IMG/VR virus record: IMGVR_UViG_2579778842_000003
Source of the DNA: a virus
Lineage: Duplodnaviria; Heunggongvirae; Uroviricota; Caudoviricetes
Strand: one strand, 5' to 3'
DNA length: 64,000 bases
Made by a program: the position numbers and the translations under genes. Shown in pieces: positions 722-29,118 of the stretch (positions are counted from its first letter, which is position 1; the number at the start of each line of letters is the position of its first letter). The notes below the pieces were generated by a model. The model had not been told where the DNA came from. It did not search any database and saw nothing but the letters and a program-made list of their open reading frames with translations.

Positions 722-726
722 GATGG

Positions 727-3457
<2,731 letters not shown>

Positions 3458-3490
3458 TTAATTAGAATAATTCGCATCGTGTTTGAACGG

Positions 3491-3512: not shown

Positions 3513-3523
3513 AAGGATTACCA

Positions 3524-6500: not shown

Positions 6501-9500
6501 AAGACATGCTTTATGACTTCGTTGCCGCCGGGCGCGTAGCCAGCGCAATGGATTCCGACTCCCATCGTAAAGAGGCGGCGCGTCGCTGGGTATTGTCGGA
6601 GTATTCAGATACCGGTACCGAAAAAGCAGAGAAGTATCCGTACTTTGAGGATATGGGCTTCGATAGTGTGATCGCCGACGAAGGTCACAACTACCGCAAT
6701 AGCTATAAAAATGGTCGCGAAGCGTCACAACTGGCCTATCTGCCCACCAGCGCGGTGGCGCAATCGGCGCGGGATATGGCAATCAAAAACGCGTACCTGA
6801 TGAAAAAGAATGGCGGGCGCGGGCCGGTTCTCCTGACTGCAACGCCAGTCGTTAACACCCCGATCGATGCATACAACATGCTTTCTCATGTTCTGCCGAA
6901 GGAATACTGGCAGAAGATGGGGATCTACGGTCCTGATGACTTCGTTAAATTCTTCGGCAAGACCAGGCTGGAAACGGTACAGAAAATCAGCGGTGAAGTT
7001 GAAGAAAAAATGGCGCTGGTGGGCTTTGAAAACCTTGATGCGCTGCGCGGTATATTCCATCGCTGGGTAACGCTTAAAACGGCGGAAGACGTTAAGGATA
7101 CCGTGGAGATCCCGGAACTGGACGAACACCAGCAGGATGCACCACTTACTGAAGAACAACTGGCGGCGTATGAAGAATTGCGTCAGCAGGCGGAAGCGGC
7201 GGCCAAAGCCAACAATGGTGTAACGACCTCGGTCAATGAAGACGGCGTGATTGAGCACGAGAAAGCCCGTCCGATCTTCTCAATAATCAGGGATATGGAC
7301 CGCGTATGTACTGACATGGACCTGTACTATCGCCGGATCACCTATCGTTTCCTGCCGGAGTACGCCGATGCGGTGCAGCAGCTGGCGGACAGTTTGCCTA
7401 AACAAGCCACCAGCGAAGACGACGACAGTGATGATTCAATCACGCAGCAATCGCAATACTCCCTGATAGATAAGGGCGAGTTTATTCAGTTGCAGGTTCC
7501 GGAAGCGTTCGAGCAGGAAGTGAATAAGCGCCTGGCCAGGTTTGGCATTGACGAACAGACCGTAACTCACCCCGTTACGCCGAAATACGCGAAGCTGATC
7601 GCCACGCTGAAGGAGTTTTTCCCGGAAGGGAAGCAAATCATCTTCACCGACGAAAAAACGCAGCACCAGAAGCTCAAGCGCATTATCTGCAATGCTCTTA
7701 ACCTTGAACCTTCAAAGGTAGGGATCCTGAATGCTCAGACTGTTGCCGAGGCAGGTAAAACCGGTAAGAAACTGAAAGCGGTTAAACCGCCGAAAGAGTT
7801 ACCGGATGAACCAACAGATGCACAGATAGCGAAATACAACGAGCAAATGGCTCTGTATGACGCCTATATCGCGCAGCAAAATGAAATGTCGTTGGGCGGT
7901 CTGGAAAAGATTGCAGCCGACTTCCAGGAGGGCCGGACTCCGATCATCATCTGCAACAAAAAGGCAGAGGTGGGTATCAACCTGCATCGAGGAACGACTG
8001 ACATCCATCATCTGACGTTGCCATGGACACCAGCCAGTATCGCACAGCGTAACGGTCGCGGTGCTCGAGTTGGCTCCAACCGTGCAAGCGTTCGCGTTCA
8101 CTACTACTGCGGCAAGGGGTCTTTCGATGAATACCGATTGAAGACGCTGAAGCGTAAAGCAGGCTGGATCTCCGATATCCTCCGTTCAGATAAGTCGGAA
8201 ATGGAGAACGCCGACGCCAATGACATGATCGAAATGCAGATGTATACCGCGAAGGATGACGGCGAACGTCTGGCAATGATGCAGGTTCAAATGGATAAGG
8301 CGAAAGCTGCGAAACGCGCTCGCCAGAAAGAACAGGCTACTATCGACCTTCAGAATTACATCAAGGCGCAGCACGCAGCTGGCGAGGATGTGGAGGTACT
8401 TACCGCTGAATTAGAGCGAAGCAAAGCGGAACTTGAAAAGACCACCGCCGAGGTAGCTAAATTCAAACAGGCGGTAATGGCCAAAGCAGCTGATAACGCA
8501 GACTGGAAAGCCCGCTGGGGTAGCGTCCATCACACAGACCGTACGTTGTTAGCACAGTATCGCGCGTCGTTGAAAAGCGCCATTCAGCGCAAGGCTAATA
8601 TCTCTCAGGCCATCTCCCGCTATGAGAAATTATTGAACCGTACTCAGAAGGCCGCGACGGATATCAAACGCCTGCGCCCGCTGGTGGAGGATGCAATAAA
8701 TAAAGGCATTCTGGATGTTGATCCTGATCTGGTTAACCATGCGAATGAGTTCCTTGTTATCGGCGATCGCTCATGGCGTGTAGGCCAATACTACGATTGT
8801 GCCGGTGATATCGTTCGCATTAAGTCGCTGGACTTCGACAGCCAGCGCGCAGACGTGGAGATCATCTTTACCTTAAGAGGCACCAAATCGGGTAACTGGG
8901 ATGTGAAGACGCTGGATAAACAGGTGGATGTAACTCCCGATGAAGATGCTGTTATGCAGAAAATCAGTGGTGGCGTCTCCATCGCCGGGATTAACGACAT
9001 CATTTCCTGTGACGATTTCTACCGTTTCCAGCAGCGCGGCATGATCAAAATCACTGACTCGTACGGCGTTCAGACTACAGAGTCAGGCTATAGCATTGAT
9101 TTTGTTGGTACCTATACGGACCCACTGAAGCATGCGGTTTACCCGGATCGCCGTGACGGCGCGCTGAAGTCGTCAATTGCAAAATGGGTGCTTGGTATGA
9201 TGTCGGAAGGGAATAACCGCCAGATCCGTTCGGCAGAAACATTCCTGGTTGAATTGTTTGGCTCCAATTATGGCGATGTAATCGCGTCATACGGAGATAC
9301 GCTATCCCCTGAAGCAATTCAGGAGAAAATAGCGGATGCGATCGCCAGAATGCCGGAAAAAACAAGCCAGGGGTCTACTCGTAACGGGGATTCTGAACTT
9401 GAAGTCACCAATGCCATTTTCGGTACCAATGAGTTCCGGGCGTCAGATTATGAGATCACCACAGCACAGTTTGGCACCATTGGCATTTACAGCAATAAAG

Positions 9501-10291
9501 ACGAGATCAAGCAGGCAATGGACGCAGCAAGTGCGCGCATTGCAGCAGAACGGAAAGCCAATCTGAATCATGCAGTCGCCGCGCTGACTCAATCGTGGGT
9601 AACAGCAATCAGGGAGGCCGCCACCACAGGAAAAATCACACCGGCAATTGCGGATGTCGTAAACGACGGCTCTAAATTTATGGATGCCTATAAAATGGAT
9701 GCGGTGCAGTTGCCATCAGTCTATGGCCAACTCAGCTATCGCATGACCTACAACCTGGTATCAATGTTTACTGACCTTGCCATCCTTGGGCTGGTGGACC
9801 TTAACGAGGTTACGCCGGAATTACTCAGCATGCGCAAGAATCATGTTGAGATATTGCAGAGAATTAACACGGTTCTTGCCGGGCGCACCGATGAAGAGAA
9901 ACAGGCCGACGCTGATCGGATAAACCTGGCCCTAGGCAACATCACGGAGGAAGAAATTGCCGCCAGAAACGAGAAACAAGAAGAGTTATCATCAATACAG
10001 GGTGATGCCACCAGCATAGCTCAGTCTCTTGGGCTGAATTATCGCGTATCCACCGCCGACCTGAAGATGATGTACGCACCAAAATTCGCCGCTGGCGAGG
10101 TATTTGGGCTTCAGGAAGCCTCCGGCATGAAAGGGGTTCTTTTCCGTGCGAAAGACGCAATCAAGGCGAAATTCGGCGCTCGCTGGTTGCCAGCGAAGGC
10201 GAAGAACAGCGATTTCCCGGGTAACTGGTGGATTATCGAGACAAAACACAACGTGGCGGACGTTCTGGCCGTCATCCAACAATACGCATAA
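3524..10291 (+). CDS. darB: DarB antirestriction protein (N6-adenine methyltransferase-like domain + DExH helicase domain)
   Basis: Single 2255-aa ORF; AdoMet motif I (LEPSAGTGVF), motif IV-like (GNVPFG), Walker A (GFGTGLGKTT), DExH box (VIADEGHNY). Size and position match P1 DarB. Confidence 0.88.
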   Translation: MNKLSIGVFRCSSVSEILKYIRAITSHRAPIKYGVEKVEGKSYDRLRREANQKAIDLLNSLVDSATLTDEQRQILAGYTGEGGIGGSVSEYYTPKPIAEGVWEIMKLYGADVGNTLEPSAGTGVFNETKPVGTVMTATEISSVSGRINQLLHPEDSVQISPFEQLAISTPNDSFDHVVGNVPFGGRDNTRNIDKPYAEETDMGSYFMLRMLDKIKPGGFMCVIVPPSIVSGSNMKRLRLRLSRKAEFLGAHRLPTGTFDANGTSTVVDVVLMRKHPAEMAEKIPLVDESTLESANVLWPTFISGKWFEKDGRRFVHGTQEKGFRGRIEVRADGQIDNQALKAKLIHRFESRIDWSLLDMAEPSPTADVVGEGEMRLINGVWQKYAGGRWIEADAGKELKIDAASYGADSWEALQRNLTTTEGRLGMTFTQMANVRDKYTTSISDDMVQLVDWINSQPEKYRERLYRGAMIGRMLIEYQDMKAAGHSAEQIEQQRLSLVSRLQAEIDRFGNPGRGPIAKLSGSGARAWFAFRGAIKLDGTISDELTGKLVTHDSSASYDSTSYQDTLRYLYSDLTRDPIQLDDFRLAFTGELPASDDELLNLLASTPGIAVSPYGGIVPFARATSGDINEIVAPKQEFLATLPDGPVKNNVLNQLAAIEEKRIKTPAENIRFKLNSRWFDRSVILEFLQENGYPDLRYVQSVQLEGDEMVSDTYHGGDGLFVGHRYGVVQRKDKETGEIRYEWDRKSGENATGFPAQLEKYLNGARIGGKDSATANGYREQMALLEDQFNKWIKTHDRYDELVAKYNDVFNSNIPYEHSGDPLGLKGLSGKRQPFDYQNSEVRRLSEDGRGILGFGTGLGKTTTALALETFNYENGRSTRTAYVVPKSVLENWYYEAKEFLSEEAFSNYLFVGLDVLMDGDQIRQVPVLDENGKPVLGTDGTPVMRDALKLADEATITARMNAIPHSNYRAVVFTKEQYARIPLRDDTVDEHAQDMLYDFVAAGRVASAMDSDSHRKEAARRWVLSEYSDTGTEKAEKYPYFEDMGFDSVIADEGHNYRNSYKNGREASQLAYLPTSAVAQSARDMAIKNAYLMKKNGGRGPVLLTATPVVNTPIDAYNMLSHVLPKEYWQKMGIYGPDDFVKFFGKTRLETVQKISGEVEEKMALVGFENLDALRGIFHRWVTLKTAEDVKDTVEIPELDEHQQDAPLTEEQLAAYEELRQQAEAAAKANNGVTTSVNEDGVIEHEKARPIFSIIRDMDRVCTDMDLYYRRITYRFLPEYADAVQQLADSLPKQATSEDDDSDDSITQQSQYSLIDKGEFIQLQVPEAFEQEVNKRLARFGIDEQTVTHPVTPKYAKLIATLKEFFPEGKQIIFTDEKTQHQKLKRIICNALNLEPSKVGILNAQTVAEAGKTGKKLKAVKPPKELPDEPTDAQIAKYNEQMALYDAYIAQQNEMSLGGLEKIAADFQEGRTPIIICNKKAEVGINLHRGTTDIHHLTLPWTPASIAQRNGRGARVGSNRASVRVHYYCGKGSFDEYRLKTLKRKAGWISDILRSDKSEMENADANDMIEMQMYTAKDDGERLAMMQVQMDKAKAAKRARQKEQATIDLQNYIKAQHAAGEDVEVLTAELERSKAELEKTTAEVAKFKQAVMAKAADNADWKARWGSVHHTDRTLLAQYRASLKSAIQRKANISQAISRYEKLLNRTQKAATDIKRLRPLVEDAINKGILDVDPDLVNHANEFLVIGDRSWRVGQYYDCAGDIVRIKSLDFDSQRADVEIIFTLRGTKSGNWDVKTLDKQVDVTPDEDAVMQKISGGVSIAGINDIISCDDFYRFQQRGMIKITDSYGVQTTESGYSIDFVGTYTDPLKHAVYPDRRDGALKSSIAKWVLGMMSEGNNRQIRSAETFLVELFGSNYGDVIASYGDTLSPEAIQEKIADAIARMPEKTSQGSTRNGDSELEVTNAIFGTNEFRASDYEITTAQFGTIGIYSNKDEIKQAMDAASARIAAERKANLNHAVAALTQSWVTAIREAATTGKITPAIADVVNDGSKFMDAYKMDAVQLPSVYGQLSYRMTYNLVSMFTDLAILGLVDLNEVTPELLSMRKNHVEILQRINTVLAGRTDEEKQADADRINLALGNITEEEIAARNEKQEELSSIQGDATSIAQSLGLNYRVSTADLKMMYAPKFAAGEVFGLQEASGMKGVLFRAKDAIKAKFGARWLPAKAKNSDFPGNWWIIETKHNVADVLAVIQQYA

Positions 10292-10324
10292 CAGGAGCGC
10301 CCGGTTCGCCGGGCGTCGCATAAT

Positions 10325-10765
10325 ATGGCCACATTATCTGATACAATAAAACCGAATAAAACATATCTTGAGGCGGTGCTGCGTACGGCGTTGTTAGGAA
10401 AGACAGAAGACGAATACGTTGATTTCTTCCTGTCAGGGCTACGCGGGCGATTACTGAAAAATCCCCGCCTGTACCGCAGTTATGGCCCATACTGGCCGGA
10501 AATTAAAAAATTATTACTGGAGCGCGGTTATGGTAATTTCGGTCGTCTCGTTGACCGTGACGTTCGCAAAATTTACCGTTATGACCGCCCGGCGCTGACA
10601 CTCATAGCCGCGACGCTCTACAGCCAGGAGCGTTTTGATAATGGTCAGATATACTCAGCCTGGCATTTACTGCCAGTGCCTGAAGAAGTTGACGACCAGG
10701 ACTATGAGTTTGAGTCTTACGATTTGGAAGTTGAAGCCTTGGCACAGGCTGGAGAGAAAACTTGA
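10325..10765 (+). CDS. hypothetical protein (P1 Ulx-like by position and size)
   Basis: 146-aa ORF directly downstream of darB, same strand; P1-like codon usage. Confidence 0.5.
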   Translation: MATLSDTIKPNKTYLEAVLRTALLGKTEDEYVDFFLSGLRGRLLKNPRLYRSYGPYWPEIKKLLLERGYGNFGRLVDRDVRKIYRYDRPALTLIAATLYSQERFDNGQIYSAWHLLPVPEEVDDQDYEFESYDLEVEALAQAGEKT

Positions 10766-11010
10766 AAAAGCGATACTACACAGTAAAGCATGGGACGCTA
10801 CGAGCATTACAAGAGTTTGCTGACAAGCATAACGTTGAGGTGCGCAGGGAAGGGGGAAGTAAAGCTCTGCGTATGTACCGTCCGGATGGGAAATGGCGTA
10901 CGGTCGTCGATTTCAAAACTAACAGCGTTCCCCAGGGCGTCCGTGACCGGGCATTCGAAGAATGGGAGCAGATCATCATAGATAACGCATTGCTCCTGAA
11001 TGCTGATTAA
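10762..11010 (+). CDS. small protein (P1 Lxc/Bof-like by position and size)
   Basis: 82-aa ORF overlapping the previous stop (ATGA-type coupling); followed by a strong terminator hairpin. Confidence 0.45.
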   Translation: MKKRYYTVKHGTLRALQEFADKHNVEVRREGGSKALRMYRPDGKWRTVVDFKTNSVPQGVRDRAFEEWEQIIIDNALLLNAD

Positions 11011-11045
11011 TTTATCGGGCAGTTTTATCTGCCCGATAAATTTTT
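11011..11045. terminator. strong hairpin terminator between convergent lxc-like and SIR2-like genes
   Basis: Perfect 12-bp inverted repeat TTTATCGGGCAG / CTGCCCGATAAA with a 6-nt loop, followed by TTTTT. Confidence 0.55.
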
Positions 11046-11056
11046 ATCGACCACAA

Positions 11057-12364
11057 TTACACTATATTCTTAACTATAAGGTTGGCGTCCTTCAAGGTGC
11101 CTAATGTTTCAATGTGGTTTTTTATCATTAATCTATTTGAGGCAATTATTGCAGGCCATCGTGTTTCCCAAGCTCTGTAAGCATACCAAGAAACTCCCCA
11201 ATTCCTTTCTTTACTCATATGACCCATCGAGTATTCAACTGCGTCTAAATATGTTTTTTCATACTTAGTATTGCTAACCTCTATGATGCTTCCAAAATAT
11301 ATAAGCCATTTTGCCAACTGTTCATATTGCTCCCACGCTCCGTTATTCCTTGTTAACTTTCTCTTTTTTTCTATTATCCTTTCGAAAAGAGAAACGACTT
11401 TATCATCATTCCAATCTAAACCTTCCGATATAATTGATGATATAATTTGATAAAATGAATCCTCTAATTTAAGATATTCATTTTTATAAGTATAAGCCCC
11501 CGAAACAACTTTTCTGATATTTTCGCGCGCTCTTTCAATGATGTCTTTAATGAGAGACATCTTATAACTTAATCGACTAAAGAAACAATCTATTTCTGTA
11601 TTGTCAATTACCCTTATACCAAAGCAATAGAAGTAATAATCCTTCATATCTTGACTTACTTTGTTGCGAGATATCAAAAAGATATTAGAGCACAGGGCAT
11701 TATTTTTCGAAAATTTTTTATAGTCATTTATAATTGCTTTAAGATTTGTGTCGCTTAAAGAATACCCTAATATCGCAACTGTATTTTCATGCAGCATCGT
11801 ACTAAGTTTTCGTGAAAAATAAGTATCGGAATTTATAAATCTGAAGTAATCATCTGAAGTGACAATCATATTTTTTGGCGAATCAATAGAGCCATGAACA
11901 TGATATATTTTCACCTTGGATGGATACTTTGGAATTGGCAGGCCGGGCGTGATAGACTGTACACTTTCATCTCCAACCAAGCATTCAGCCAACTTGTCAT
12001 AATTTGTTGTAATGACACGGAATGAGTTTTTTTGGAAAAAATCTTTTATATTTGATATGTCTTCTCCAAGTTGAATTGGAGATATGATGTCAACAATTTC
12101 ATCATAAATCGACTTACCCTCAATATTGAGCTTCAAAGATAGTATTTGTGCGGCTTCTTCAAGACTCAGTGCTGGTGGTTTATCATCAGGGAATAACGTG
12201 TCTTCCAACTTTTTGGCATTGTGAACTTTGCTGCAAACTTTTTTTAATAGTTCCTTCCACGTTGGAGCTTCACCGTTCGAGACTGCCTTTGAAAAGCCAG
12301 TCCCGGTAAATAGACAAAGCCTGCTTGTAGCGGCAGCGTATGCTAACTCAACATATTCGCTCAT
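11057..12364 (-). CDS. SIR2-family (SIR2_2-like, putative NAD+ hydrolase) protein with uncharacterised C-terminal domain; candidate anti-phage defence gene
   Basis: 435-aa ORF, visibly AT-rich versus flanks. Motifs: LFTGTGFSKAV (GxGxS), VITTNYDKL (TNYD), IYHVHGS...IVTSDDYF. GGAG SD upstream of the ATG. Occupies the slot where P1 carries res/mod. Confidence 0.8.
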   Translation of the reverse strand: MSEYVELAYAAATSRLCLFTGTGFSKAVSNGEAPTWKELLKKVCSKVHNAKKLEDTLFPDDKPPALSLEEAAQILSLKLNIEGKSIYDEIVDIISPIQLGEDISNIKDFFQKNSFRVITTNYDKLAECLVGDESVQSITPGLPIPKYPSKVKIYHVHGSIDSPKNMIVTSDDYFRFINSDTYFSRKLSTMLHENTVAILGYSLSDTNLKAIINDYKKFSKNNALCSNIFLISRNKVSQDMKDYYFYCFGIRVIDNTEIDCFFSRLSYKMSLIKDIIERARENIRKVVSGAYTYKNEYLKLEDSFYQIISSIISEGLDWNDDKVVSLFERIIEKKRKLTRNNGAWEQYEQLAKWLIYFGSIIEVSNTKYEKTYLDAVEYSMGHMSKERNWGVSWYAYRAWETRWPAIIASNRLMIKNHIETLGTLKDANLIVKNIV

Positions 12365-12420
12365 TACTTACTCCATTTACTTATAGTTCTATGGAGAAGT
12401 ATACCCTAATGCATTGACGT

Positions 12421-13089
12421 TTATAGATAATTTCCTTTTCCAGTTAACTCCCCTTTAGGCACCCGTTTTTGTGCCAGTGTTTGGGTTCCGCGAATTATGT
12501 TAATCAGAGGGCTTAGTAACGATGATTCCTGGCGGGCATCAACTTCTCCTGCCATTGCCCTAATGTAGTCGGCGCTTGCAACGTTGTTATATTCCGTTGC
12601 GAAGCAGCATAACAACGTCAGAACGTGCTCTGTCGTTATTTCGCTCCAGTTGATGTTGAAAAATTCATCGCCTTTTTTGTCATGTTCGGAATCGAAGATG
12701 CTTTGGTGAAGGATGTATTTGCCGGATTCCTTGCGCGGTAACTTGATCGCTTTCTGGCGTTCCAATTCCTTGTAAATCTGCATCGCTTCAATCAGTACCG
12801 GTCTGCCGTTCATGAAGGGATCACGCAACCTTACACGCTGGCCAACTCGACCGGTAATAAAGCTGTTTTCCTCTTCCACCAGCACGATAAAACCCTTTTC
12901 CTCTTTTTCTCGCAATTCGCGCAGCAGCTGGAGTTCCATATCGCGGCGGCGTTCAGGGTAGCTGGTCCGCTCAGCCATTATCAGCTCATTGTTGATCCAT
13001 GCGGCAGTCATTGACGCCGGTTTGCCGACGCTCATCGAAACAACGCATATTTTCTTATCCATAGCGCCCCTACAAAAAAGAAAAGCCAC
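12421..13089 (-). CDS. hypothetical protein (P1 Mat-like by position)
   Basis: 222-aa ORF between ref and the SIR2-like gene; alternative start at MDKK (13062). Positional assignment only. Confidence 0.5.
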   Translation of the reverse strand: MAFLFCRGAMDKKICVVSMSVGKPASMTAAWINNELIMAERTSYPERRRDMELQLLRELREKEEKGFIVLVEEENSFITGRVGQRVRLRDPFMNGRPVLIEAMQIYKELERQKAIKLPRKESGKYILHQSIFDSEHDKKGDEFFNINWSEITTEHVLTLLCCFATEYNNVASADYIRAMAGEVDARQESSLLSPLINIIRGTQTLAQKRVPKGELTGKGNYL

Positions 13090-13250
13090 CAGCGGCGGCT
13101 TAGCAATACAACTGAAGGTAGCGCCCGGTACTCAGACTGTGCCGTCCATGGAATATTTGAAAAGGGATCCATCCGTACCGGGCGTGTGATGATTCTGACT
13201 GAAGTCACTTGTCAGTTGTCAATCATTTATCATTAAAAATAATATATTTA

Positions 13251-13811
13251 TTAGTGCATAATGTTTGTCATCTCATAGGCGTCAGCCAGTAACTCCATCT
13301 CTGACTTGTTCAGCAGGGTGAATTCTTTCTTGCCTCCAACCACACCATCGGCATGAACAGGGACCAGCCAGGGGTATTTTGCTCTTACTTCAGTCGGTGC
13401 TGCATGCTGGTGGTGCCATCTACAAAGTGGCAATTGCTTTTTATGACAACCCGGCGCAGTACGACCGGCGATATGGTGCAGAGACACCTCATTAGATATT
13501 ACTCCATGCATATAGCAGGCAATGCAGGGGAGAGTGCCAAGAGCATTGGCGATGCGCCGTTCCTCCGCCGTTGGTGTTCTCCCCTTCAAGCCACGAGATT
13601 TTATTTTTACCGCGCTTTTCCGCGTTTTGCTGGCTGGTGGGCGCTCTTTCTGTTTAGCGATACGGCGGTCGATAGTATCCCGCATTTTCTGATATTGAGA
13701 TTCTCGCCAGACCGGATCAGCCAACTTCTCCCGTTGCCGAGCGATCGCTCGTTCTCTGGCTGCCTTCTGCCACTTGCGGCACTGTTCAATTTTTTGTTCG
13801 ATTGTTTTCAT
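13251..13811 (-). CDS. ref: Ref recombination enhancement function, HNH-type endonuclease
   Basis: 186 aa; basic N-terminus, Cys/His-rich HNH-like core (CIACYMHG...HHIAG...CHKKQLPLCRWHH); C1 operator-like site just upstream. Confidence 0.85.
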   Translation of the reverse strand: MKTIEQKIEQCRKWQKAARERAIARQREKLADPVWRESQYQKMRDTIDRRIAKQKERPPASKTRKSAVKIKSRGLKGRTPTAEERRIANALGTLPCIACYMHGVISNEVSLHHIAGRTAPGCHKKQLPLCRWHHQHAAPTEVRAKYPWLVPVHADGVVGGKKEFTLLNKSEMELLADAYEMTNIMH

Positions 13812-13908
13812 ATGGTCAAAAAAAGGCGGCCTAATGGCCGCCTATGATGTCAAGGAGTGAAGTAATGGCAACGTCTTCGTAGTTGACAAAAACTGCGACT
13901 CAATTATA

Positions 13909-13925
13909 GCAACCAATTAGAGCAA
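13909..13925 (-). promoter_or_regulatory. C1 operator-like site upstream of ref
   Basis: - strand reads ATTGCTCTAATTGGTTG (11/17 contiguous match to ATTGCTCTAATAAATTT). Confidence 0.45.
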
Positions 13926-14057
13926 TTAAAGTTGTTTATTTATCGCGAATCACATTTTTTCACTTCAGTACCTGTGTGCTATACTCCTTCTTGATTGATT
14001 GGATGCGGAATACAAACCCGCTCTTTTGTGCAGCCTGACTCCTTGCCAGGCTTTTTT

Positions 14058-14369
14058 TTATTTCATCATGGAAGCTGTTAACGCTTTGGACCTTGCTGAA
14101 CTGATTGAGAGGGCTTTGTCAACGTGCCCCAAAAATTCGCCAAACTCAGACATCACTTTAGCAAAACCGCGCCGTGCTTCTTCCTCGGTGGCATTCATCA
14201 CGAAATGTTCAGCACCACGCATACTTTTGACAGGGAACGCAACGGATATTGAATCAATATCAGGCATTCTATCGCTCAGCTTTACAGTGACAATGACGGC
14301 TGGCGACTGAATATTAGTGCTTACAGACAGCACTACATATTTTCCGTCGATGTTGAAATCCTTTCTCAT
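14058..14369 (-). CDS. hypothetical small protein downstream of cre (cra-region ORF; strand uncertain)
   Basis: 103-aa ORF preceded by a C1 operator-like site; an overlapping 103-aa ORF exists on the + strand, so strand choice is tentative. Confidence 0.3.
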   Translation of the reverse strand: MRKDFNIDGKYVVLSVSTNIQSPAVIVTVKLSDRMPDIDSISVAFPVKSMRGAEHFVMNATEEEARRGFAKVMSEFGEFLGHVDKALSISSARSKALTASMMK

Positions 14370-14384
14370 ATGTCACCATAAATA

Positions 14385-14401
14385 TCAAAGAATTAGAGCA
14401 A
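14385..14401 (-). promoter_or_regulatory. C1 operator-like site
   Basis: - strand reads ATTGCTCTAATTCTTTG, between the cre 3' end and the small ORF start. Confidence 0.4.
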
Positions 14402-14419
14402 TCATTTACGCGTTAATGG

Positions 14420-15451
14420 CTAATCGCCATCTTCCAGCAGGCGCACCATTGCCCCTGTTTCACTATCCAGGTTACGGATATAGTTCATGACAATATTTAC
14501 GTTGGTCCAGCCACCAGCTTGCATGATCTCCGGTATTGAAACTCCGGCACGGGCCATATCTCGCGCGGCTCCGACACGGGCACTGTGTCCAGACCAGGCC
14601 AGGTACCTCTGGCCAGAGTCATCCTTAGCCCCGTAAATCAATCGGTGAGTTGCTTCAAAAATCCCTTCCAGGGCGCGAGTTGATAGCTGGCTGGTGGGTG
14701 ATGGCGAGGCAACACCATTTTTTCTGACCCGGCAAAACAAGTAGTTATTCGGATCATCAGCCACACCAGAGACAGAAATCCATCGCTCGACCAGTTTAGT
14801 TACCCCCAGGCTAAGTGCCTTCTCTACACCCGCGGTACTAACCAGCGTTTTCGTTCTGCCAATATGGATTAACATTCTCCCACCGTCTGTACGTGAGATA
14901 TCTTTAACCCTGATCCTGGCAATTTCGGCTATACGTAACAGGGTGTTATAAGCGATCCCCAGAAATGCCAGATTACGTATGTCCTGGCAGCGATCGCTAT
15001 TTTCCATGAGTGAACGAACCTGGTCGAAATCAGTGCGTTCGAACGCCAATGCCTGTTTTGCACGTTCACCGGCATCAACGTTTTCTTTTCGAATCCGCCG
15101 CATGACCAGTGAAACAGCATTGCTGTCACTTGGTCGTGGCAGCCCGGACCGACGATGAAGCATGTTTAGCTGGCCCAAATGTTGCTGGATAGTTTTTACT
15201 GCCAGACCGCGCGCCTGAAGATATAGAAGATAATCGCGAACATCTTCAGGTTTTGCGGGAAACCATTTCCGGTTATTCAACTTGCACCATGCCGCCCATG
15301 ACCGGCAAACGGACAGAAGCATTTTCCAGGTATGCTCAGAAAACGCCTGGCGATCCCTGAACATGTCCATCAGGTTCTTGCGAACCTCATCACTCGTTGC
15401 ATCGACCGGCAATGCAGGCAAATTTTGGTGTACGGTCAGTAAATTGGACAT
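14420..15451 (-). CDS. cre: Cre tyrosine site-specific recombinase
   Basis: 343 aa, MSNLLTVHQNLPALPVDATSDEVRKNLMDMFRDRQAF... through ...MVRLLEDGD; near-identical to P1 Cre as recalled; loxP lies about 420 bp upstream. Confidence 0.97.
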   Translation of the reverse strand: MSNLLTVHQNLPALPVDATSDEVRKNLMDMFRDRQAFSEHTWKMLLSVCRSWAAWCKLNNRKWFPAKPEDVRDYLLYLQARGLAVKTIQQHLGQLNMLHRRSGLPRPSDSNAVSLVMRRIRKENVDAGERAKQALAFERTDFDQVRSLMENSDRCQDIRNLAFLGIAYNTLLRIAEIARIRVKDISRTDGGRMLIHIGRTKTLVSTAGVEKALSLGVTKLVERWISVSGVADDPNNYLFCRVRKNGVASPSPTSQLSTRALEGIFEATHRLIYGAKDDSGQRYLAWSGHSARVGAARDMARAGVSIPEIMQAGGWTNVNIVMNYIRNLDSETGAMVRLLEDGD

Positions 15452-15869
15452 TTGACACTCAGATAATGGTTTTAAGTAAAGTGTACAGGATCGGCTCTGC
15501 CTTTACCTGTTTATGGTTCTCGTCATAGAAACGCCAGCGACCGCGCGTGCGTTCTATTTTCTCTTCACCGCGCGATAATGACAGTTGACAACTATCACGA
15601 TCAAACCCTTTTGCCCGCCAGTAACCACGGTTTTTCTCAAGCTCAATATGAGTGGACACTTTAGCAGCTGAATATCCCATTTTTCACCTCTGATTGATTG
15701 GTGGTGCTAAGTGCGCTACGCGAAATCTAGAGCACAAACACTGCCAACATTTCGCAGATTTTACGTAGCGCAACCTTGATCAAATGATCAAGTGATCACT
15801 ATTTGACCTGATAAGGTATTGAACTGTATGGATTTACAGGTAAATTGATCATGTTCAATAACCCCTAAT

Positions 15870-15903
15870 ATAACTTCGTATAATGTATGCTATACGAAGT
15901 TAT
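15870..15903 (+). other. loxP: loxP recombination site (13-bp inverted repeats + 8-bp spacer)
   Basis: Exact ATAACTTCGTATA-ATGTATGC-TATACGAAGTTAT. Confidence 0.97.
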
Positions 15904-15946
15904 TAGGTCTGAAGAGGAGTTTACGTCCAGCTGCGCATAAAAATCA

Positions 15947-15963
15947 ATAATTATTAGAGCAAT
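15947..15963 (-). promoter_or_regulatory. C1 operator (Op99-type region)
   Basis: - strand reads ATTGCTCTAATAATTAT; forms an inverted pair with the operator at 16030-16046. Confidence 0.6.
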
Positions 15964-16029
15964 AAATTTTGAGAGAAAAATCCCACTCCACCAGCCAAAA
16001 ACTGGATTGTTTTTCATAGTTGTTTGACA

Positions 16030-16046
16030 ATTGCTCTAATAAATTA
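16030..16046 (+). promoter_or_regulatory. C1 operator overlapping a promoter (TTGACA at 16024-16029, TATAGT at 16045-16050) directed toward coi-c1
   Basis: ATTGCTCTAATAAATTA on the + strand immediately after a TTGACA -35 hexamer; classic P1 operator-promoter overlap. Confidence 0.65.
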
Positions 16047-16284
16047 TAGTTTTGCCGCCGTTTCGTAATACGACTTTGGATTCACTATTTAATGTGTCTT
16101 CAGCGTTGTAGAGCGGCTCAGAAGGAAATGAGCAAACAGGGAAACCTTATACAACGGCATTACAGCTATGCATTGCTCATCTTACACACAGCGCAATGTT
16201 GTTAGATTACCCCAGCATGGATCATGGGTGAAACAGTAGGTCAGAGCTTCAGGCTCTGTGTTGTCAATACAGTGAGGCATAATT

Positions 16285-16494
16285 ATGGCTTTCATTCCAC
16301 CAACCATCGACGACGTTAGACATTGCTCTAACGCTTTATCTGTAGACCCCGCCGAAACCGACGCTGCCCGCGCCATTGCTGAACACTACTCAAAGATATC
16401 CAATCAGGAGTACCGCATCACCCAAGACGACCTGGATGATCTCACTGACACAATCGAATATCTCATGACCACTAACCAGCCAGACTCACAATAA
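16285..16494 (+). CDS. coi: Coi, C1 inactivator
   Basis: 69-aa ORF immediately upstream of c1 on the same strand; size and position match P1 coi. Confidence 0.75.
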   Translation: MAFIPPTIDDVRHCSNALSVDPAETDAARAIAEHYSKISNQEYRITQDDLDDLTDTIEYLMTTNQPDSQ

Positions 16495-16604
16495 ATGCAC
16501 TAATAAATCTATTATTTTCGTTGGATCCTTCTATAATGGTGGCCAACAACTCCCAGCGTAATCCGCTGTGAGTTGTTGGCCATGTCAATTCTGGAGGAGG
16601 ATCA

Positions 16605-17456
16605 ATGATAAATTATGTCTACGGCGAACAACTGTACCAGGAGTTCGTCAGTTTCAGGGATCTCTTTCTAAAAAAAGCTGTTGCACGCGCCCAACACGTT
16701 GATGCCGCCAGCGACGGTCGTCCTGTTCGCCCGGTTGTCGTTCTGCCGTTCAAAGAAACGGACAGCATTCAAGCTGAAATTGATAAATGGACTTTAATGG
16801 CGCGGGAACTGGAACAGTACCCAGACCTCAATATCCCAAAGACTATTTTATATCCAGTGCCTAACATCCTTCGCGGTGTGCGTAAGGTTACAACTTATCA
16901 GACAGAAGCTGTGAACAGCGTCAACATGACCGCTGGCCGCATTATTCATCTGATTGATAAGGACATTCGCATCCAGAAAAGCGCGGGGATCAATGAGCAC
17001 AGTGCGAAATACATAGAGAACCTGGAAGCAACAAAAGAGCTAATGAAGCAGTACCCGGAGGATGAAAAATTCCGTATGCGTGTACACGGCTTTAGCGAAA
17101 CAATGCTGCGCGTCCATTACATTTCCAGTAGCCCTAACTACAATGATGGTAAATCAGTTAGTTACCATGTGCCGCTGTGTGGTGTGTTTATCTGCGATGA
17201 AACTCTCCGTGATGGAATCATCATCAACGGTGAATTCGAGAAAGCAAAATTTAGCCTTTATGACTCTATAGAACCGATCATCTGCGACCGCTGGCCGCAG
17301 GCAAAAATATATCGCCTGGCAGATATTGAAAATGTAAAAAAACAAATTGCCATCACTCGCGAAGAGAAAAAGGTCAAATCAGCCGCATCAGTTACGCGCA
17401 GCCGTAAAACTAAGAAGGGGCAGCCAGTAAACGACAACCCCGAAAGCGCGCAATAG
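16605..17456 (+). CDS. c1: C1 repressor of lytic functions
   Basis: 283-aa ORF (size of P1 C1), downstream of coi and the Op99-type operators; its cognate operators are scattered through the window. Confidence 0.9.
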   Translation: MINYVYGEQLYQEFVSFRDLFLKKAVARAQHVDAASDGRPVRPVVVLPFKETDSIQAEIDKWTLMARELEQYPDLNIPKTILYPVPNILRGVRKVTTYQTEAVNSVNMTAGRIIHLIDKDIRIQKSAGINEHSAKYIENLEATKELMKQYPEDEKFRMRVHGFSETMLRVHYISSSPNYNDGKSVSYHVPLCGVFICDETLRDGIIINGEFEKAKFSLYDSIEPIICDRWPQAKIYRLADIENVKKQIAITREEKKVKSAASVTRSRKTKKGQPVNDNPESAQ

Positions 17457-17480
17457 TTTCTATCCGGCATGGTCAATGAG

Positions 17481-18965
17481 TTATTCATTAAGCCATGCCA
17501 GAGCTTCATCAACCTGCGCTTCGTCTTCGACGCTAAGCACTTCATCCTGGGGAACATAATCCGCCAGCATAGCGAAACAATATGTATCCCAATGGTCTGG
17601 TGAGTGCAGGTTGAGTTTTTTCTTCATATCCTCCTTACTCATCACCTTCCATTGACCTGCGGAGTTAATCCCTACAGGGATTTTCGACGCTTCCTCAATA
17701 GTTTCATTACCCTTATCCAGTCTCATACGACCAGATTTTACGGCCTCTGCGGCTTGAACGTTGGCATAAGCACGTTTATCAAAGTACAGGCTCTTATCTT
17801 CACGGCTATGCATCTTTTTACCCCAGCGTATACGCTGTACGGTAATACCATAATACTCGTACATCAGATCCGCCGTTGCTTTACCCAGGCCATCGCCGTC
17901 TATCGCTATGGTGATATTTGGGAATCGCTCAGGATTACATTCTGCGAAAATTTTGGCGGCAAGCTGCGTTTCTGTAACGTCTGTGTATTCCAGCATTCGA
18001 TAGTTGATTACACGGCGTTTATTTCGCTGGCCGGACACCATCATGATATTGATAACGGACTTATCCCGTCCCGTACCACCAGCAACGTCCACACATGCAA
18101 GCCAGCCCCATCCTTTTGCAATCTTGACTTTCCGCCTCGTTGCACGTTCAACCTCATCACGTCCAAGAAGGAAGCCATCCTGTGATTTAGGGAATAGGCC
18201 GCGTACCTTAATCATGTACATAGGGTTATCACGCCCGCCGTACTCCGCCAGCTTCATTTTGATAAATGCTGGCGTTACCAGCGGTGATTCCTCACTGTTA
18301 AGCGTGATCGCCGTATAAACGCCATCAGGGTTACCAGGACGCTTGGCCAGTTTATGGTGAGTATCGTAGAAATAGCCGCTTGGGCGTGTAGGCTGTGACA
18401 GTAATAAGATGCGGTTATCCTGTCCGGTAAGAGCACCGGTGATGATACCGAAAGCTCTATCACTGACACCGGAGGCTTCATCGATAATATACAGAAGATG
18501 ATCTGCGTGTTCACCGGCGAGAGCTTCTTCACTTCCCAGACGAAAGCCCTTCGGTACTACAGTCCATACACCTTTACCAGTAACCTCATAGAAAGCGGTT
18601 TCTGTCAGAACAAAATAATCAGCAAGCCATGGAAAACGGCTGGTGGCAGTAGCCCAGTTTATCTTGATGTACTTGAAAATACCGGTCATTACCTGCTGAA
18701 TTTTGTTCGCAACGATAATGGCGCGGGCACCGGGATACATGATTATGAACAACATGATCATGATAGAAGTCATGTCTGATTTCCCGGTACCGTGACCAGA
18801 CGAAACAGATGTCTTGCTACCCTGTTCCTGCACAGACTCAATAATCAGATCCTGCTGCCAGGTAGGTGTTTTGCCGAACAAAACATCAGCGGCCGCAATC
18901 CAGTCATAACGATATAGCGCCACCAGCTCGCGCCAACGTGGATCCGTTACGCAACTTCTGGCCAT
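17481..18965 (-). CDS. pacB: PacB terminase (pacase) large subunit
   Basis: 494-aa ORF directly downstream of pacA, overlapping stop/start; size and order as in P1. Confidence 0.8.
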
Positions 18966-20158
18966 TAATCATCATCCCCGTATAGCTTGCGGGTAACTTC
19001 TTCGTCTTCCTCCTCGTCTTCGTCCAGGTCTTGTTCCAGCCATGGGTCGTTTGATACACCTTCAGTATCAACATCTCCATAACCGCCTGTATCAACGATA
19101 TCGGCGATTTCTTCCCTACGCTGCTCAATCCACAATGCGGCATCGGCGCGGCGGTTGGCGGCCCGTTCTCGCGCAACTTTATCCAGATCTTCAAGAGAAG
19201 GGCCACCGACGGCTGTTTGCCTTTCCTCATCATCGGTATTGGTCTTAGGAGCACGCAGATCGGCTTTGATTTGCTCCAGCATCAGGGGCGGAACTTTCCC
19301 ACCATGCGCCTCGATGAATTCAGCTGCTTCCAGCACTGACCAGTTATTTTCACGCTTTCGTTCGTATGCCAGCTTAACAATGCCAGCTTGCCCCATAGAC
19401 AAAGCGTGCTTTTCCGCCTCCCGGCTTTCTTTTCGATAGTTATTCCGGATGCTGTAAATGGTGTTGATCAGGCTGCTTATCTGCGCGGAACAGCTGTTTA
19501 GCATGCTCGCGATACGGTATTCAGGCGGAGTACCTTCATCATCGTCTTTTTGCTGATCGCGCATTTCCTGCACCAGGCGAATACACGTATCCCTGGCGTT
19601 CTCCAGCATAAGGAGATGAGAAAGAGACTTTTCAAGAAGAGTGGTTTCCAGAACATCGGCCCCGGACCGACGCAACATAGCGCGCGCGGCCTTCCGCGCT
19701 TCAACGTTATCTATCAGGTAATCGCCAGCTTCGAATTCAAAGCGTTCACCATCATCATCCAGGGTGTCGCGTTCCAGGCGATCACGTAAGGTCCGGTGGG
19801 CGCGGGTGATCACGTCATGATCATCTGAACGATCATTTATGCGCTTATTTTGGCGCTTCGCATTCTCGACTGCGGCACTGATAACGGCATTAACTCTCTG
19901 TTTTTCCGCTATTTCAGCCGCAATATGATCACCTGCATGTTGATCATTAGAGTGATCAATGATCATGCTTTTTAGTGGCTTCCTGACTGGCTTATTTGGC
20001 TTGCGGCTGTCCGCAGTCCTGGAGTCTTCTTTGAAGGCACGGAGATAACGACGTGCGGTATTAGGGTTAAGATTAAACTCGGCGGCATACTGTGCGATGG
20101 TGTAACCACCATCTCGCGCCAGGCGAGCAAAATTCTTCTTGTGATCGTCCCAGGTCAC
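18965..20158 (-). CDS. pacA: PacA terminase (pacase) subunit; contains the pac site
   Basis: 397-aa ORF; helix-turn-helix-like N-terminus; the GATC-hexamer pac site lies in its 5' part. Confidence 0.8.
19779..19965. other. pac: pac packaging site: two clusters of (T/C)GATCA hexamers (Dam sites)
   Basis: GATC at 19780, 19808, 19819, 19831 and at 19927, 19942, 19954, 19961; four hexamers on each side of a ~90-bp core, inside pacA. Confidence 0.7.
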
Positions 20159-20243
20159 TTATGCTTCCTTTCGTAAAAACTCTTTTTGACGCGAGGGTAA
20201 CGAAAGTCACATGTCAAAAGGCCCGGAACGGGCAAGCAATCAA

Positions 20244-20696
20244 TCAGATACGTGCGGATGTGGCATTACCGTAATGACGGTGCTGACGGGCCACCTTATT
20301 GAAAAGTTGACGCGCCATTACCCAAGGCTGGTGCTCCCGGCGTTCCTTTTCGTCCTGCGTCATATAGAGTTCGTTCTGGAGTTTTTCATCAAACCGGCGC
20401 GGAGCGCGGCTACGGCGAAAGAATTCAGGATTCAGAGAGTGGATCTGAAATCTACGTGGGCGTGTACTGTCATCAATCAAAACAGACGAATACTTAGACA
20501 CAGCGATAGCCTTTAAGCGCAGATAAACATCGCGCTTATCGACATCCAGATGCGGGTATTCCTTTTCAAGAATTGCTGCGAGTTCTTTCGCTGATAGAAG
20601 AGATTTAGTGCGGATCATGTAATCCGCAATCTCGTACGATGTTATTCGTGAGTGATTTATTTCCATGAAGTGGCGTCCCTGCCAGTTAAGTAACAT
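20244..20696 (-). CDS. lpa: Lpa-like late promoter activator (gene 10 position)
   Basis: 150-aa ORF immediately upstream of pacA with a C1 operator-like site upstream; alternative start at MEINHS (20666). Positional assignment. Confidence 0.55.
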   Translation of the reverse strand: MLLNWQGRHFMEINHSRITSYEIADYMIRTKSLLSAKELAAILEKEYPHLDVDKRDVYLRLKAIAVSKYSSVLIDDSTRPRRFQIHSLNPEFFRRSRAPRRFDEKLQNELYMTQDEKERREHQPWVMARQLFNKVARQHRHYGNATSARI

Positions 20697-20766
20697 CCTG
20701 TCACCTACTGATTAGCCCATGTCAACTAATCAACGTGGAATATAATACCCTCGATTAAAGAAATAG

Positions 20767-20783
20767 CAATACATTAGAGCAAT
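20767..20783 (-). promoter_or_regulatory. C1 operator-like site upstream of lpa
   Basis: - strand reads ATTGCTCTAATGTATTG. Confidence 0.5.
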
Positions 20784-20784
20784 T

Positions 20785-21828
20785 TTATATAACGCTCGAC
20801 GAGTGACTTGTGATAGCGCCGACTCCAAGCGCGTAATCAAAGAACAATCGTTGATGCATCGCCAGCCTACCGTGCGTCTTCTCCCAATTATCGCGGTCAC
20901 GCTCAATATCACGCTGGCATGACTGGCACAGAGGAATTGCGTAAATGTCATGCGCGCATAATCGACTATGACGAACGATATAAGGCGTAATGTGAGCGCC
21001 AGCTCCCGCCGCTCCACACCCACAGCATGGACGGGAAGCAACAAAGTCCATGTACTCAGGTAATTTTAGCGATTGCAGTTTTGGTATTTTGAAATGCGCC
21101 ATGCCAGGGTCGGAGTCAACATCCACAGGGCATACTTTTGCACGCATCGGCGCGGCGCGTTCTTCCATCATCTGAACATATGCTGTAGCGCGATCGTCAT
21201 ACGGGCGAATATCCGCCTCTTTCAGAGGTCCGCTATCCTGCGTTGCGGCTTTCATCTTATTTATTGATATACGGCAAACTTCTTCCGGCATCAGGTGCAT
21301 CATGTTGCGCATGAAAGCCCACCAGCACAGTTCCTGAATACTTAGATCATGGCCATCTGAAAGCCCCATTTCCTGACGGGCGACATCCAGTATCCAGTTA
21401 ACGCGATTATTATGCAGCGTTTCTTTCAGCTCATTAAAACCACGCATCCGGTAATGGTTATCGTGATGCCAGCACAACAACACCGCGCTATTGTCTCGTT
21501 CTGCGTGGACAATATGGTTGTCACACCAGCTACGATCTGCGGCCTGGCATTGCCCCTCTTTCCTGCGCAACCACGCCACCAGCGCGTCAATTCCACCAAT
21601 ACGGCGAAACAGTTCATCGCTGTTAAAAAACGGCTGCAACGCCTCATTTGTTGCCATGGTTTGCTCGGTAACAACGAGGCCGTCTTCCATGTGCTCGATT
21701 AACTCGCGCGGCACCGGCTCCATAATAAATTTACGGCCAGCCTCCACCAGCTTTCTGACCTCCTGATCCACTTTGAACGTGGCGAGGCCAAGCTCTTTCT
21801 GTACAAAGGGAGTAATTACGGCTTTCAC
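20785..21828 (-). CDS. hypothetical Cys/His-rich protein (post-doc region, PdcB-like by position)
   Basis: 347-aa ORF; C-terminal CCGCG...H...C..C..C cluster suggests a metal-binding or HNH-like module. Confidence 0.5.
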
Positions 21829-21855
21829 ATCACACCTTTCATCACTGATTGGGCT

Positions 21856-22035
21856 TTATCTGCTGCCCGGCATTCTCTGTTTAAGCGCAACCATTTCCTG
21901 ACGGCATAACACAGCAATAGCGGTCCTGACTCCAATTTGCTTACCAACCAGGTATTGCTTTACCTTGCGGCGACTCACGCCATCAAGAAGCATCTTTAAC
22001 GCTTCACGGGACAATTTGTTGTATTTGCGTGCCAT
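21856..22035 (-). CDS. small basic protein downstream of doc (PdcA-like by position)
   Basis: ORF 21856..22056 trimmed to the internal Met (MARKYNKL) to avoid overlap with doc. Confidence 0.35.
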   Translation of the reverse strand: MARKYNKLSREALKMLLDGVSRRKVKQYLVGKQIGVRTAIAVLCRQEMVALKQRMPGSR

Positions 22036-22039
22036 TAAT

Positions 22040-22420
22040 CTACTCCGCAGAACCATACAATCTACGTAACGTGTCGGCGACAGAAGATACAGATATCTCT
22101 CCGGTCGCAGCCCCTACGGTAAGGTCTGCCAGTTCAGGTGAATCAAATACCTGCACCCCGTTACGGCGTAGAAATAACAGCGCACTGTTTAGCGCGGTAC
22201 GCTTATTGGCATCATTGAATATATGCCCTCTCGCTGTAGCCACCAGGTAGGTGGCGGAGACTTCGAAAAGGTCGGTGATCTCTTCGTAGGCAACTCTGGC
22301 CTGAACTCTCCCGATAATGGCCTCTGCCCTACCAGGATCTGACATTCCCGGCAGGCCGCCGTAGCGGTTTATATTCGCATCATGAAGCGCAATAAGTTCT
22401 TCCGGTGATATATGCCTCAT
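22040..22420 (-). CDS. doc: Doc toxin (Fic-fold kinase) of the Phd-Doc addiction module
   Basis: 126 aa, [25 protein letters not shown]...; matches P1 Doc as recalled; start overlaps the phd stop by 1 nt. Confidence 0.93.
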
Positions 22421-22641
22421 TATCGGTTAACCAGTTCCTTGTTGGTGGAGTCCAGGGTGTCAAACAGGGATGCAAATTCAGCATCCAGCGCCGCTTTTTT
22501 GTAGGCTTCGAAAGTAGCCTTGCTGACAATTACTGCTGGCTCACGGCCTCTGCGGGTGATTTCAACCTCTTCCCCGGCTTCAACATTGTTGAGCACTTCA
22601 GAAAGGTTGCCGCGCGCGGTACGGAAGTTAATGGATTGCAT
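22420..22641 (-). CDS. phd: Phd antitoxin
   Basis: 73 aa from [32 protein letters not shown]...; start set at the third codon of the listed ORF. Confidence 0.93.
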
Positions 22642-22713
22642 AAACACCTCGTGTACTCGTTATGTGTACACAATTATAAACTTCACAGGCATAAAGCACC
22701 AGCACTTTGCAGC

Positions 22714-23103
22714 TTAAATGACCGGACAATCATCAAACTCTCCACTCCGGGCATCATTGATGACATGAGTGATCACACCAAAAACAGCATTACTACCCGT
22801 GTAACCATCGTCATCTACTGGTAACGCCTCTTTCTTCCCGGTGCTTAAATCCTCCAGGTGCTGGCGCGGATACTTCCTGTATCTCTTTATGCGATATTCA
22901 CCCTCCATAGCGCACACAAGCAGAGAACCATCAACCGGAGTAAGCGAGGAATCAACCACCAGCAAAGCACCCTGCAATATTCCCTCACGGTGATGGCTAT
23001 CAGTTGCCCGCATGAAGTAGGTTGCTGATGGATGCCTGATTAGTTGCTGATCAAGAGAAATTCGGCTTTCAACATAATCCGCCGCAGGAGAAGGGAAGCC
23101 CAT
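22714..23103 (-). CDS. humD: HumD, UmuD-like S24 peptidase-family protein
   Basis: 129-aa ORF upstream of phd-doc; UmuD'-like architecture; position and size as P1 humD. Confidence 0.8.
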   Translation of the reverse strand: MGFPSPAADYVESRISLDQQLIRHPSATYFMRATDSHHREGILQGALLVVDSSLTPVDGSLLVCAMEGEYRIKRYRKYPRQHLEDLSTGKKEALPVDDDGYTGSNAVFGVITHVINDARSGEFDDCPVI

Positions 23104-23550
23104 AGCGTTTTCACCTCAATAATACTGTTCATTTATACAGTATACATTAAAGAGACACCTTTGGTGCAAACGCGTTACGTACATCAACCACCGCTGATGA
23201 TTTTGTGCTCTTTGCTACTATTCATCACCAACGGATCAGCGTAACCTCGTTGCCAATCAGTTAATAAGGAGATGCCGCAGCGACCGGATCATCAACAAGA
23301 AATTGTTGCTGAATTTTCCTCAAGGGATGAGATGAATCTCTTCTCATTAAAGCAGGAAGAAAGGGATCGCGTCGAAGTGTCTCCAACTCTCGACCACAAC
23401 CGGATGAACCTGGCCCAACTCGCCTAGTACAGCAAAGAATTAGAGATGTCTATTGCCCGACTTGAAAACGAAAAAGCCGCTATCCAAGTCCAGCACGAAG
23501 TAGTTCTGAACCGGATTAGAGAAATGCAAAACGATAACAGGGGATTTTGA

Positions 23551-23907
23551 ATGGCTAAAGTCGAGTACCATCGCGATCGCGGTAATTACCTGGAAATATA
23601 CGATCATGAATCTCTTAACGATATCAACGATGCGTTATATGAATACTGTGAAAAAACGAGCATCACAGATGCACCTGATGCATTTGTCGAGCTGCCGGTA
23701 TATCTCCGCGACATCTATGCAATACGAACACCGCCCGTATCGGTGATTCACATTGGCTATGTCCGCCTGTCCATCGAAGAAGATGAAGATCGTTATATCG
23801 TGCGCCACTATACATTGGACAGAAAAGAACTTCCTAATGAATGGAACATGAGTAATTTCTACAACGGTGAATATGGCTTAAAATCCGCTAATAATTTACG
23901 GTCATAA
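23551..23907 (+). CDS. hypothetical protein
   Basis: 118-aa ORF with plausible start context; no recognisable motif. Confidence 0.4.
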   Translation: MAKVEYHRDRGNYLEIYDHESLNDINDALYEYCEKTSITDAPDAFVELPVYLRDIYAIRTPPVSVIHIGYVRLSIEEDEDRYIVRHYTLDRKELPNEWNMSNFYNGEYGLKSANNLRS

Positions 23908-24769
23908 TCTATACAGGCATGTATAACAACAACGAGCCTATTAGCTGTCAACAACATTATTTTCTCAAATAAGAAAAAGCAGAAAACAAATTGTTTAAGA
24001 TCACAAATTGTGGCCTTGATGGAGGAGGGAGGCTTATTGGCTATGGCTAAAAATCAAATTAGACACTTCATGTTGCTGTAGCTCATCAAGATCCGAGGCC
24101 ACAAAACCTTTTCCGAAAAACTTCACAAGTAACTCACTAGCTGCATCATTGTCACCTATTACACGAAAGTCATACGGCAACGTCGCAAGTTGACGATGTA
24201 ATCCTGCTGAGAAAGTCGAATCTAACAGCGCCCAGAATTCCCACCGCAGGATAATACTCGCCTCTTAATACTGTATATATGTTGTTACGATATGTTTTTC
24301 TGTCTCTAAAAAAAGATGTTAATAGAATGCTAACCATTGAAGGGGATAAAAATATACAATTCCAACAAACGTTATTTTTAACAATTTTTTTCTTTGCGTT
24401 GACTTTCCCTGACACCTTGTCTGACCGAAGGTGCGCGAAAGCCACTTTTTCCTTCCTGAGTTATCCACAAAGTTATGCACTTGCAAGAGGGCCATTTTCT
24501 ACATATTGTGGTGGCTAACAGATGAAATGAATGTAGATTAATTGAAGATAAGGAGAAAATTTGAGATGCAATCATGACGTTAATAGATAGGGTCTGCATT
24601 ACAGACCCCACCCGCATCAAGGAATTAGCCGTTCCCTGATGTTTTTCCGAAAACATGTGCCGTAAGCTCACGTTAACGACTTTCATTCACCGAATCCAAC
24701 TATATAGGGGTTGGGTTTCTACGTCAACGTGAGCAAGTGCACCTTTACATTTGACAAGGAACCACCTGA

Positions 24770-25345: not shown

Positions 25346-26016
25346 ACTTCACCCTCGCTTGTATCACCAGCGTCCACCAACGACAATAAAGCCCTGGCCA
25401 TCTTATGAACCAACAGTGCATCAATAATGCCAAGCGTATGCCCCGGCTTAATGTTTAATGCTGCCTCAAGATGACACCTTTCCAGACCGCTTTTCTCGGC
25501 TTGTTTATGATGATATGGCGTAATAACGTCGCCCAAAACACGGCTAATTCTTTCTCGTAATTGCTGGGTGCCAGCACACTTGATCGCTGTATCGTGGAGA
25601 CGGTTAACCAGTTCGCGATAAACATGCGGTTTAATGCGGATACGTTCACCGGTGACGCCCTTTCCTGGCCCTGGCACCGAACTATCCGGAATATCCGGAT
25701 AGTTGCCAGCCTCGTAAGCTACCCGCAGCCAGTGCATGAATGTTTCAGTAGACACACAACCACAGTCCACATCGATTTTTCCGCGTTGCTGTTCCAGCCA
25801 CTGCTCAAAATTCAATCTACACGTATTACTTTCATGTTGCTCTTTTTGTCTTAAGGCCAGCACCTGTTGGGCCAGTTCCAGAACGATACCGGGTGACGCT
25901 AACCTCTCAAATTCCAATAAATAGTTTGCGTCAGGATGACAAGTAGCCTCGCCTGCAAAAAATACCAATTGCTGTAAGTATGCTGTCGTTAGAGTAGTCA
26001 TTTCTTTTTGCGCCAT
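25342..26016 (-). CDS. hypothetical protein
   Basis: 224-aa ORF overlapping the downstream start by 4 nt (coupled). Confidence 0.5.
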   Translation of the reverse strand: MAQKEMTTLTTAYLQQLVFFAGEATCHPDANYLLEFERLASPGIVLELAQQVLALRQKEQHESNTCRLNFEQWLEQQRGKIDVDCGCVSTETFMHWLRVAYEAGNYPDIPDSSVPGPGKGVTGERIRIKPHVYRELVNRLHDTAIKCAGTQQLRERISRVLGDVITPYHHKQAEKSGLERCHLEAALNIKPGHTLGIIDALLVHKMARALLSLVDAGDTSEGEV

Positions 26017-26372: not shown

Positions 26373-26378
26373 ATAAAT

Positions 26379-26768: not shown

Positions 26769-26850
26769 TTGCTGAAAAAATCAAAACATTTACTTTTGAC
26801 ATTATAAACTTTCTCTCGGTGTCGTAGGTGATAGCACCATAATTGATAAT

Positions 26851-29117: not shown

Positions 29118-29118
29118 A

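Follow-up and report, generated by a model that had tools for sequence, protein, structure and literature searches.

Organisation of the Cre-loxP module

The 64,000-nucleotide stretch of viral DNA analysed here (the window) carries, at 14420–15903, a module consisting of cre, the Cre-associated gene cra, a cre/cra regulatory region and a loxP site (Table 1). Inspection of the open reading frame list together with alignment to a PDB entry identified the product of cre as a tyrosine recombinase, which matched the Pfam Phage_integrase family PF00589 (E = 6e-33), and which aligned with wild-type Cre (PDB 1nzb) at E = 6e-229. A sequence search confirmed the original prediction that the loxP site is exact: all 34 positions are canonical, with no difference from the loxP of the original P1 record X03453 as annotated there. 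This cognate 34-bp site, comprising 13-bp inverted repeats and an 8-bp spacer, adjoins cre, upstream of which it lies at a distance of 452 nt from the ATG, a spacing also recorded for P7, phiW39, SJ46 and phi456. It was the only copy present in the 64-kb window, the number expected by chance from shuffled sequence being none, and no second or pseudo-lox site was found in the window when up to three mismatches were allowed.

A Cre tetramer brings two loxP sites into synapsis, each site being bound at its two 13-bp inverted repeats, and strands are exchanged via phosphotyrosyl intermediates formed by Tyr324; in P1, the Cre-loxP system both closes infecting DNA into a circle and resolves dimers of the plasmid. 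The module described here would likewise serve for cyclisation and dimer resolution in a phage-plasmid.

Table 1. Positions in the window of the module components, the substituted cre codons and two accessory genes
Feature	Position	Strand	Remarks
cre	14420–15451	-	343 aa tyrosine recombinase; 340/343 residues identical to P1 Cre
cre codon 252	14696–14698	-	GCC>CCC (Ala to Pro, A252P)
cre codon 249	14705–14707	-	GCG>TCG (Ala to Ser, A249S)
cre codon 67	15251–15253	-	GAA>AAA (Glu to Lys, E67K)
cra (Cre-associated)	15459–15680	-	73 aa; two differences from P1 Cra (T5A, L12I)
cre/cra regulatory region	15681–15869	-	189 nt; P1 annotation transferred via gap-free alignment
P3cre positional equivalent	15758–15783	-	transferred from P1 annotation
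P2coi positional equivalent	15819–15846	-	transferred from P1 annotation
LexA box positional equivalent	15822–15841	-	transferred from P1 annotation
loxP	15870–15903	+	34 bp; exact, 34/34
SIR2_2-domain gene	11057–12364	-	435 aa; best PADLOC matches to PDC-S25, ThsA-like and LmuA-like models
PAPS-reductase/SspD-like gene	30180–31058		inside the 5.4-kb insertion

The host element

Comparison of the window with the whole P1 genome by local blastn indicated that 54.1 of the 64 kb are collinear with P1, in reverse orientation and at 94.5–98.8% identity, the 1484-nt span of the module being itself 97.1% identical to the reference. This genome-scale synteny at high identity takes in the immC, pac, rep/par and morphogenesis regions, and is interrupted by five non-P1 segments. 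The proposal that the element is a close relative of P1 with swapped accessory loci, rather than reference P1, was thereby borne out, and on sequence grounds it belongs to the wild P1-like phage-plasmids (Punavirus, IncY) found in E. coli, as distinct from either laboratory P1 or a Cre vector. NZ_CP091040.1, the 97.7-kb plasmid unnamed3 of E. coli W25K from a pig in China, is classified as IncY by PLSDB and is presumably the record from which the window derives: the two stretches of the window compared with it (1–16661 and 39001–64000, 41.7 kb) were 100% identical, as were the Cre protein, the cre nucleotides and the whole 1484-nt span.

With respect to the non-P1 segments, the stretch of P1 holding the EcoPI type III restriction-modification genes (res/mod) and IS5 (P1 3469–9749) is replaced at 11011–12420 by a gene with a SIR2_2 domain, and this occupant of the res/mod slot is probably an anti-phage defence gene. 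The segment at 25718–31095 is a 5.4-kb insertion relative to P1, located at P1 coordinate 85182, which in addition to the PAPS-reductase/SspD-like protein encodes a DUF551 protein, an Ead/Ea22-like protein and several unannotated ORFs. The segment at 45355–46442 stands in place of the P1 tciA-C region, while 23534–24361 and 62987 to the end of the window (64000) are without a P1 counterpart.

The surroundings of lox (12421–23270) were further removed from P1 (96.6% identity on the mat-ref-c8-cre side and 94.5% on the immC-c1-pac side) than were the structural gene blocks (98.0–98.8%), and this higher divergence points to the immunity and lox region having had a different history.

Comparison of the window Cre with P1 Cre

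The original prediction had suggested that the Cre of this element carries a few substitutions relative to textbook P1 Cre, and had proposed pairwise alignment with the reference as a check. When conducted both against 1nzb and codon-by-codon against NC_005856, alignment revealed 340 identities in 343 positions, short of the full identity that would have contradicted the prediction, and exactly three differences, E67K, A249S and A252P. The two peptide differences named in the prediction proved correct, the reference reading FPAEPEDV and GVAAPSATSQ where the window Cre reads FPAKPEDV and GVASPSPTSQ, and the same reference protein is encoded by X03453, NC_005856 and phage phi456.

At the nucleotide level, cre differs from that of P1 at 26 positions, 23 of them synonymous and three non-synonymous. 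The corresponding Nei-Gojobori estimates (dS = 0.100; dN = 0.0038; dN/dS = 0.039) represent a significant deficit of replacements relative to neutrality (binomial p = 6e-12). The catalytic residues R173, E176, K201, H289, R292, W315 and Y324 are all intact, and residues in contact with DNA, K244 in the minor groove plus R259 and E262 of helix J, are unchanged. Taken together, these data point to a gene under purifying selection with an intact and functional-looking ORF. The alternative that cre is decaying, whether through relaxed selection or by pseudogene formation in a defective prophage-plasmid, could draw on the presence of the substitutions and on nothing beyond; set against the full-length ORF, the dN/dS value, the intact catalytic residues and the exact loxP, it is extremely improbable.

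The regulatory region

Across cra and the region upstream of it, the window and P1 align without gaps. The 206-nt upstream region contains 12 substitutions relative to P1, none of which falls within either the promoter hexamers annotated in P1 or the LexA box, and eight of which are clustered in the cra leader (P1 coordinates 133–158; window positions 15729–15754). P1 (NC_005856, X03453; PDB 1NZB) and the window share the catalytic residues, the 34-bp loxP, the gene order cra-cre-c8-ref, the promoter hexamers, the LexA box and the lox-to-cre spacing, but differ by the three Cre substitutions, the 23 synonymous changes in cre, the two residues of Cra and the 12 upstream substitutions.

Four GATC sites are present in the regulatory region (15778, 15786, 15794 and 15847) as against three in P1. 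The additional Dam site (15794–15797) results from a G-to-A change at 15795, and is next to the three that the P1 annotation lists as Dam sites.

Location of residues 67, 249 and 252

An alignment of Cre with five distant homologues recovered by plasmid tblastn (30–42% identical to Cre) contained 45 invariant columns, among which none of the three substituted positions was included. Position 67 was occupied in the homologues by E, K, S or T, and the motif PAKPEDVR found in the window Cre recurred in a Citrobacter homologue; positions 249 and 252 fell within a variable, indel-bearing loop.

A single-sequence AlphaFold model, with a mean pLDDT of 47.5 and values below 50 for residues 128–343, was usable for the N-terminal domain only, and played no part in placing residues 249 and 252. 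In its confident N-terminal part, the loop leading into helix C (68–80) ends with residue 67. At the largest monomer–monomer interface of Cre, residues 25, 29, 32 and 33 face residues 69, 72 and 76 (PMC8789052), and E67K thus places a charge reversal two residues away from interface residue E69, which is the same in the window Cre as in P1 Cre. In the published description of the DNA-binding elements, loop 241–245 makes minor-groove contacts, and helix J reads the major groove via R259, E262 and G263 (PMC5766204); on that placement, A249S and A252P are located in the linker between the minor-groove loop and helix J. No study of Cre residues A249, A252 or E67 was found in the literature, the sole mention being that of the evolved designer recombinase RecHTLV, which carries A248V/A249V/P250S (PMC10362392). 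The three substitutions are consequently near, yet not at, known functional contacts.

This proximity of both regions to functional surfaces (PMC8789052, PMC5766204, PMC10362392) is one reason for considering that one or more of the substitutions might be adaptive and measurably alter the behaviour of Cre, a proposition that is nonetheless quite improbable. E67K could in principle affect the assembly or the cooperativity of the tetramer where helices A and C meet, and A249S/A252P could act through the linker preceding helix J to change how tightly or how specifically DNA is bound. However, residue 67 is outside the published interface set of 69, 72 and 76 (PMC8789052), and all three positions vary in the homologues, one of which naturally carries K67. 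Given the location of E67K near interface residues 69, 72 and 76, and of residues 249 and 252 near the DNA-reading elements, subtle effects of the substitutions on cooperativity or specificity may occur.

Distribution of the module and of its cre alleles

Elements of this kind are common: of the 5426 complete E. coli genomes searched, 699 (~13%) contained the Cre-loxP module, nearly always on plasmids, and it was also present in 705 plasmids of PLSDB. In a peptide tblastn survey of all plasmids, a 30-mer spanning S249/P252 was matched exactly in 109 of ~705 plasmid records (~15%), with one mismatch in a further 152 and with two in 440, while a 30-mer spanning K67 was matched exactly in only four of 699 plasmid cre genes. 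Of the four K67 plasmids, one came from a pig in China, one from cattle in the UK, one from human urine in the USA and one from poultry meat in Switzerland.

A survey of 14 sampled related cre genes indicated that the combination A249S plus A252P is common to several plasmids (CP033251, CP010243 and CP080373), and that CP123018 combines A249S with A252S. Taken with the peptide survey, codons 249 and 252 between them present three alleles at high frequency. pTB211 (NZ_CP033251.1), the cre of which is 6 nt from that of the window, shares A249S and A252P without E67K, as do other S249/P252 carriers. pRHB26-C21_3 (CP057446.1, UK cattle) is identical to the window in both Cre protein and cre nucleotides, but its sequences flanking lox are different, and the region upstream of cre contains a 1-bp indel relative to the window. 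Among the remaining relatives, each with the same module and an exact loxP where that site is present, P7 Cre has the private substitutions A178S and G280D, the Cre of phiW39, SJ46 and a Klebsiella plasmid has T206A, and that of RCS47 has A252S; a few amino acid differences per lineage can accordingly be regarded as the norm. Whatever the Cre allele, loxP was identical in all 13 relatives in which the site lay within the examined stretch.

The exact window Cre protein is present on 505 public contigs, annotated as a site-specific integrase (WP_032167081.1), and the allele is thus already known. These contigs, together with the recurrence of the same cre nucleotide sequence in the independent assembly CP057446 from UK cattle, the 23 synonymous differences from laboratory P1 and the location of cre inside a 54-kb collinear stretch of P1-like genome, leave a practically negligible probability that the substitutions reflect sequencing or assembly errors, or contamination with a laboratory Cre vector, in favour of which no observation was made.

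K67 occurs on two cre lineages which are 30 nt apart, one of the window type and the other resembling P7, with Q35H, Q144L, A178S and S226T in addition. Its presence on two distinct lineages could be a hint of selection over drift, and the three high-frequency alleles at codons 249/252, maintained despite a dN/dS of 0.04 for the gene as a whole, would also be compatible with an adaptive effect. The two K67 lineages are, however, identical from cre nt 154 to about nt 350, a pattern that repeated mutation and transfer on a short recombination tract would fit alike; the latter would explain the sharing of K67 without recourse to selection. The rarity of K67 and the lack of any co-variation of loxP with the Cre allele are likewise at odds with adaptation. 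Although nothing in the data requires it and it is very improbable, E67K, which reverses the charge at the helix C N-cap and occurs on two lineages, may be a selected modifier of tetramer assembly or cooperativity which together with S249/P252 alters the accuracy or kinetics of recombination; were that so, this natural Cre could possibly be useful for engineering.

Interpretation

The account that with high confidence best accommodates these various data is that the locus is a normal, functional Cre-loxP module carried by a P1-like phage-plasmid from the wild, in which the three substitutions are standing polymorphisms and the activity of the enzyme is most likely unchanged. A249S, A252P and E67K are natural variants at what would be unconstrained surface or loop positions, A249S plus A252P constituting a common haplotype on top of which E67K would be a rare derived change. 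The activity of the window Cre on loxP would be essentially that of the P1 enzyme, an expectation based on the purifying selection acting on cre, the intact active-site and recognition residues, the invariance of loxP, and the variability of positions 67, 249 and 252 in homologues. Judged by these sequence comparisons, recombination at the unchanged site is very probably affected little, if at all, by the three substitutions.

The overall importance of the result is small, the allele being a known natural one. Natural Cre alleles nevertheless prove to be a handful of residues removed from the laboratory enzyme while loxP is invariant, and positions 67, 249 and 252, among others, provide recombinase engineers with a mild pointer to substitutions in Cre that are naturally tolerated.

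Additional observations on database records

Of 713 cre-lox matches in complete E. coli genomes, 19 were on records labelled as chromosome, which could represent either integrated P1-like elements or misassigned replicons. Many phage records name Cre as a 'GST-loxP-cre recombinase fusion protein', and the second of the features matched in several plasmid records, at the position of cra, is named 'creatininase'. A 35-nt exact match covering loxP was also recorded inside the portal gene of Lactococcus phage Q33 (JX564242.1, 17547–17581), where it looks like the product of engineering or an assembly artefact.
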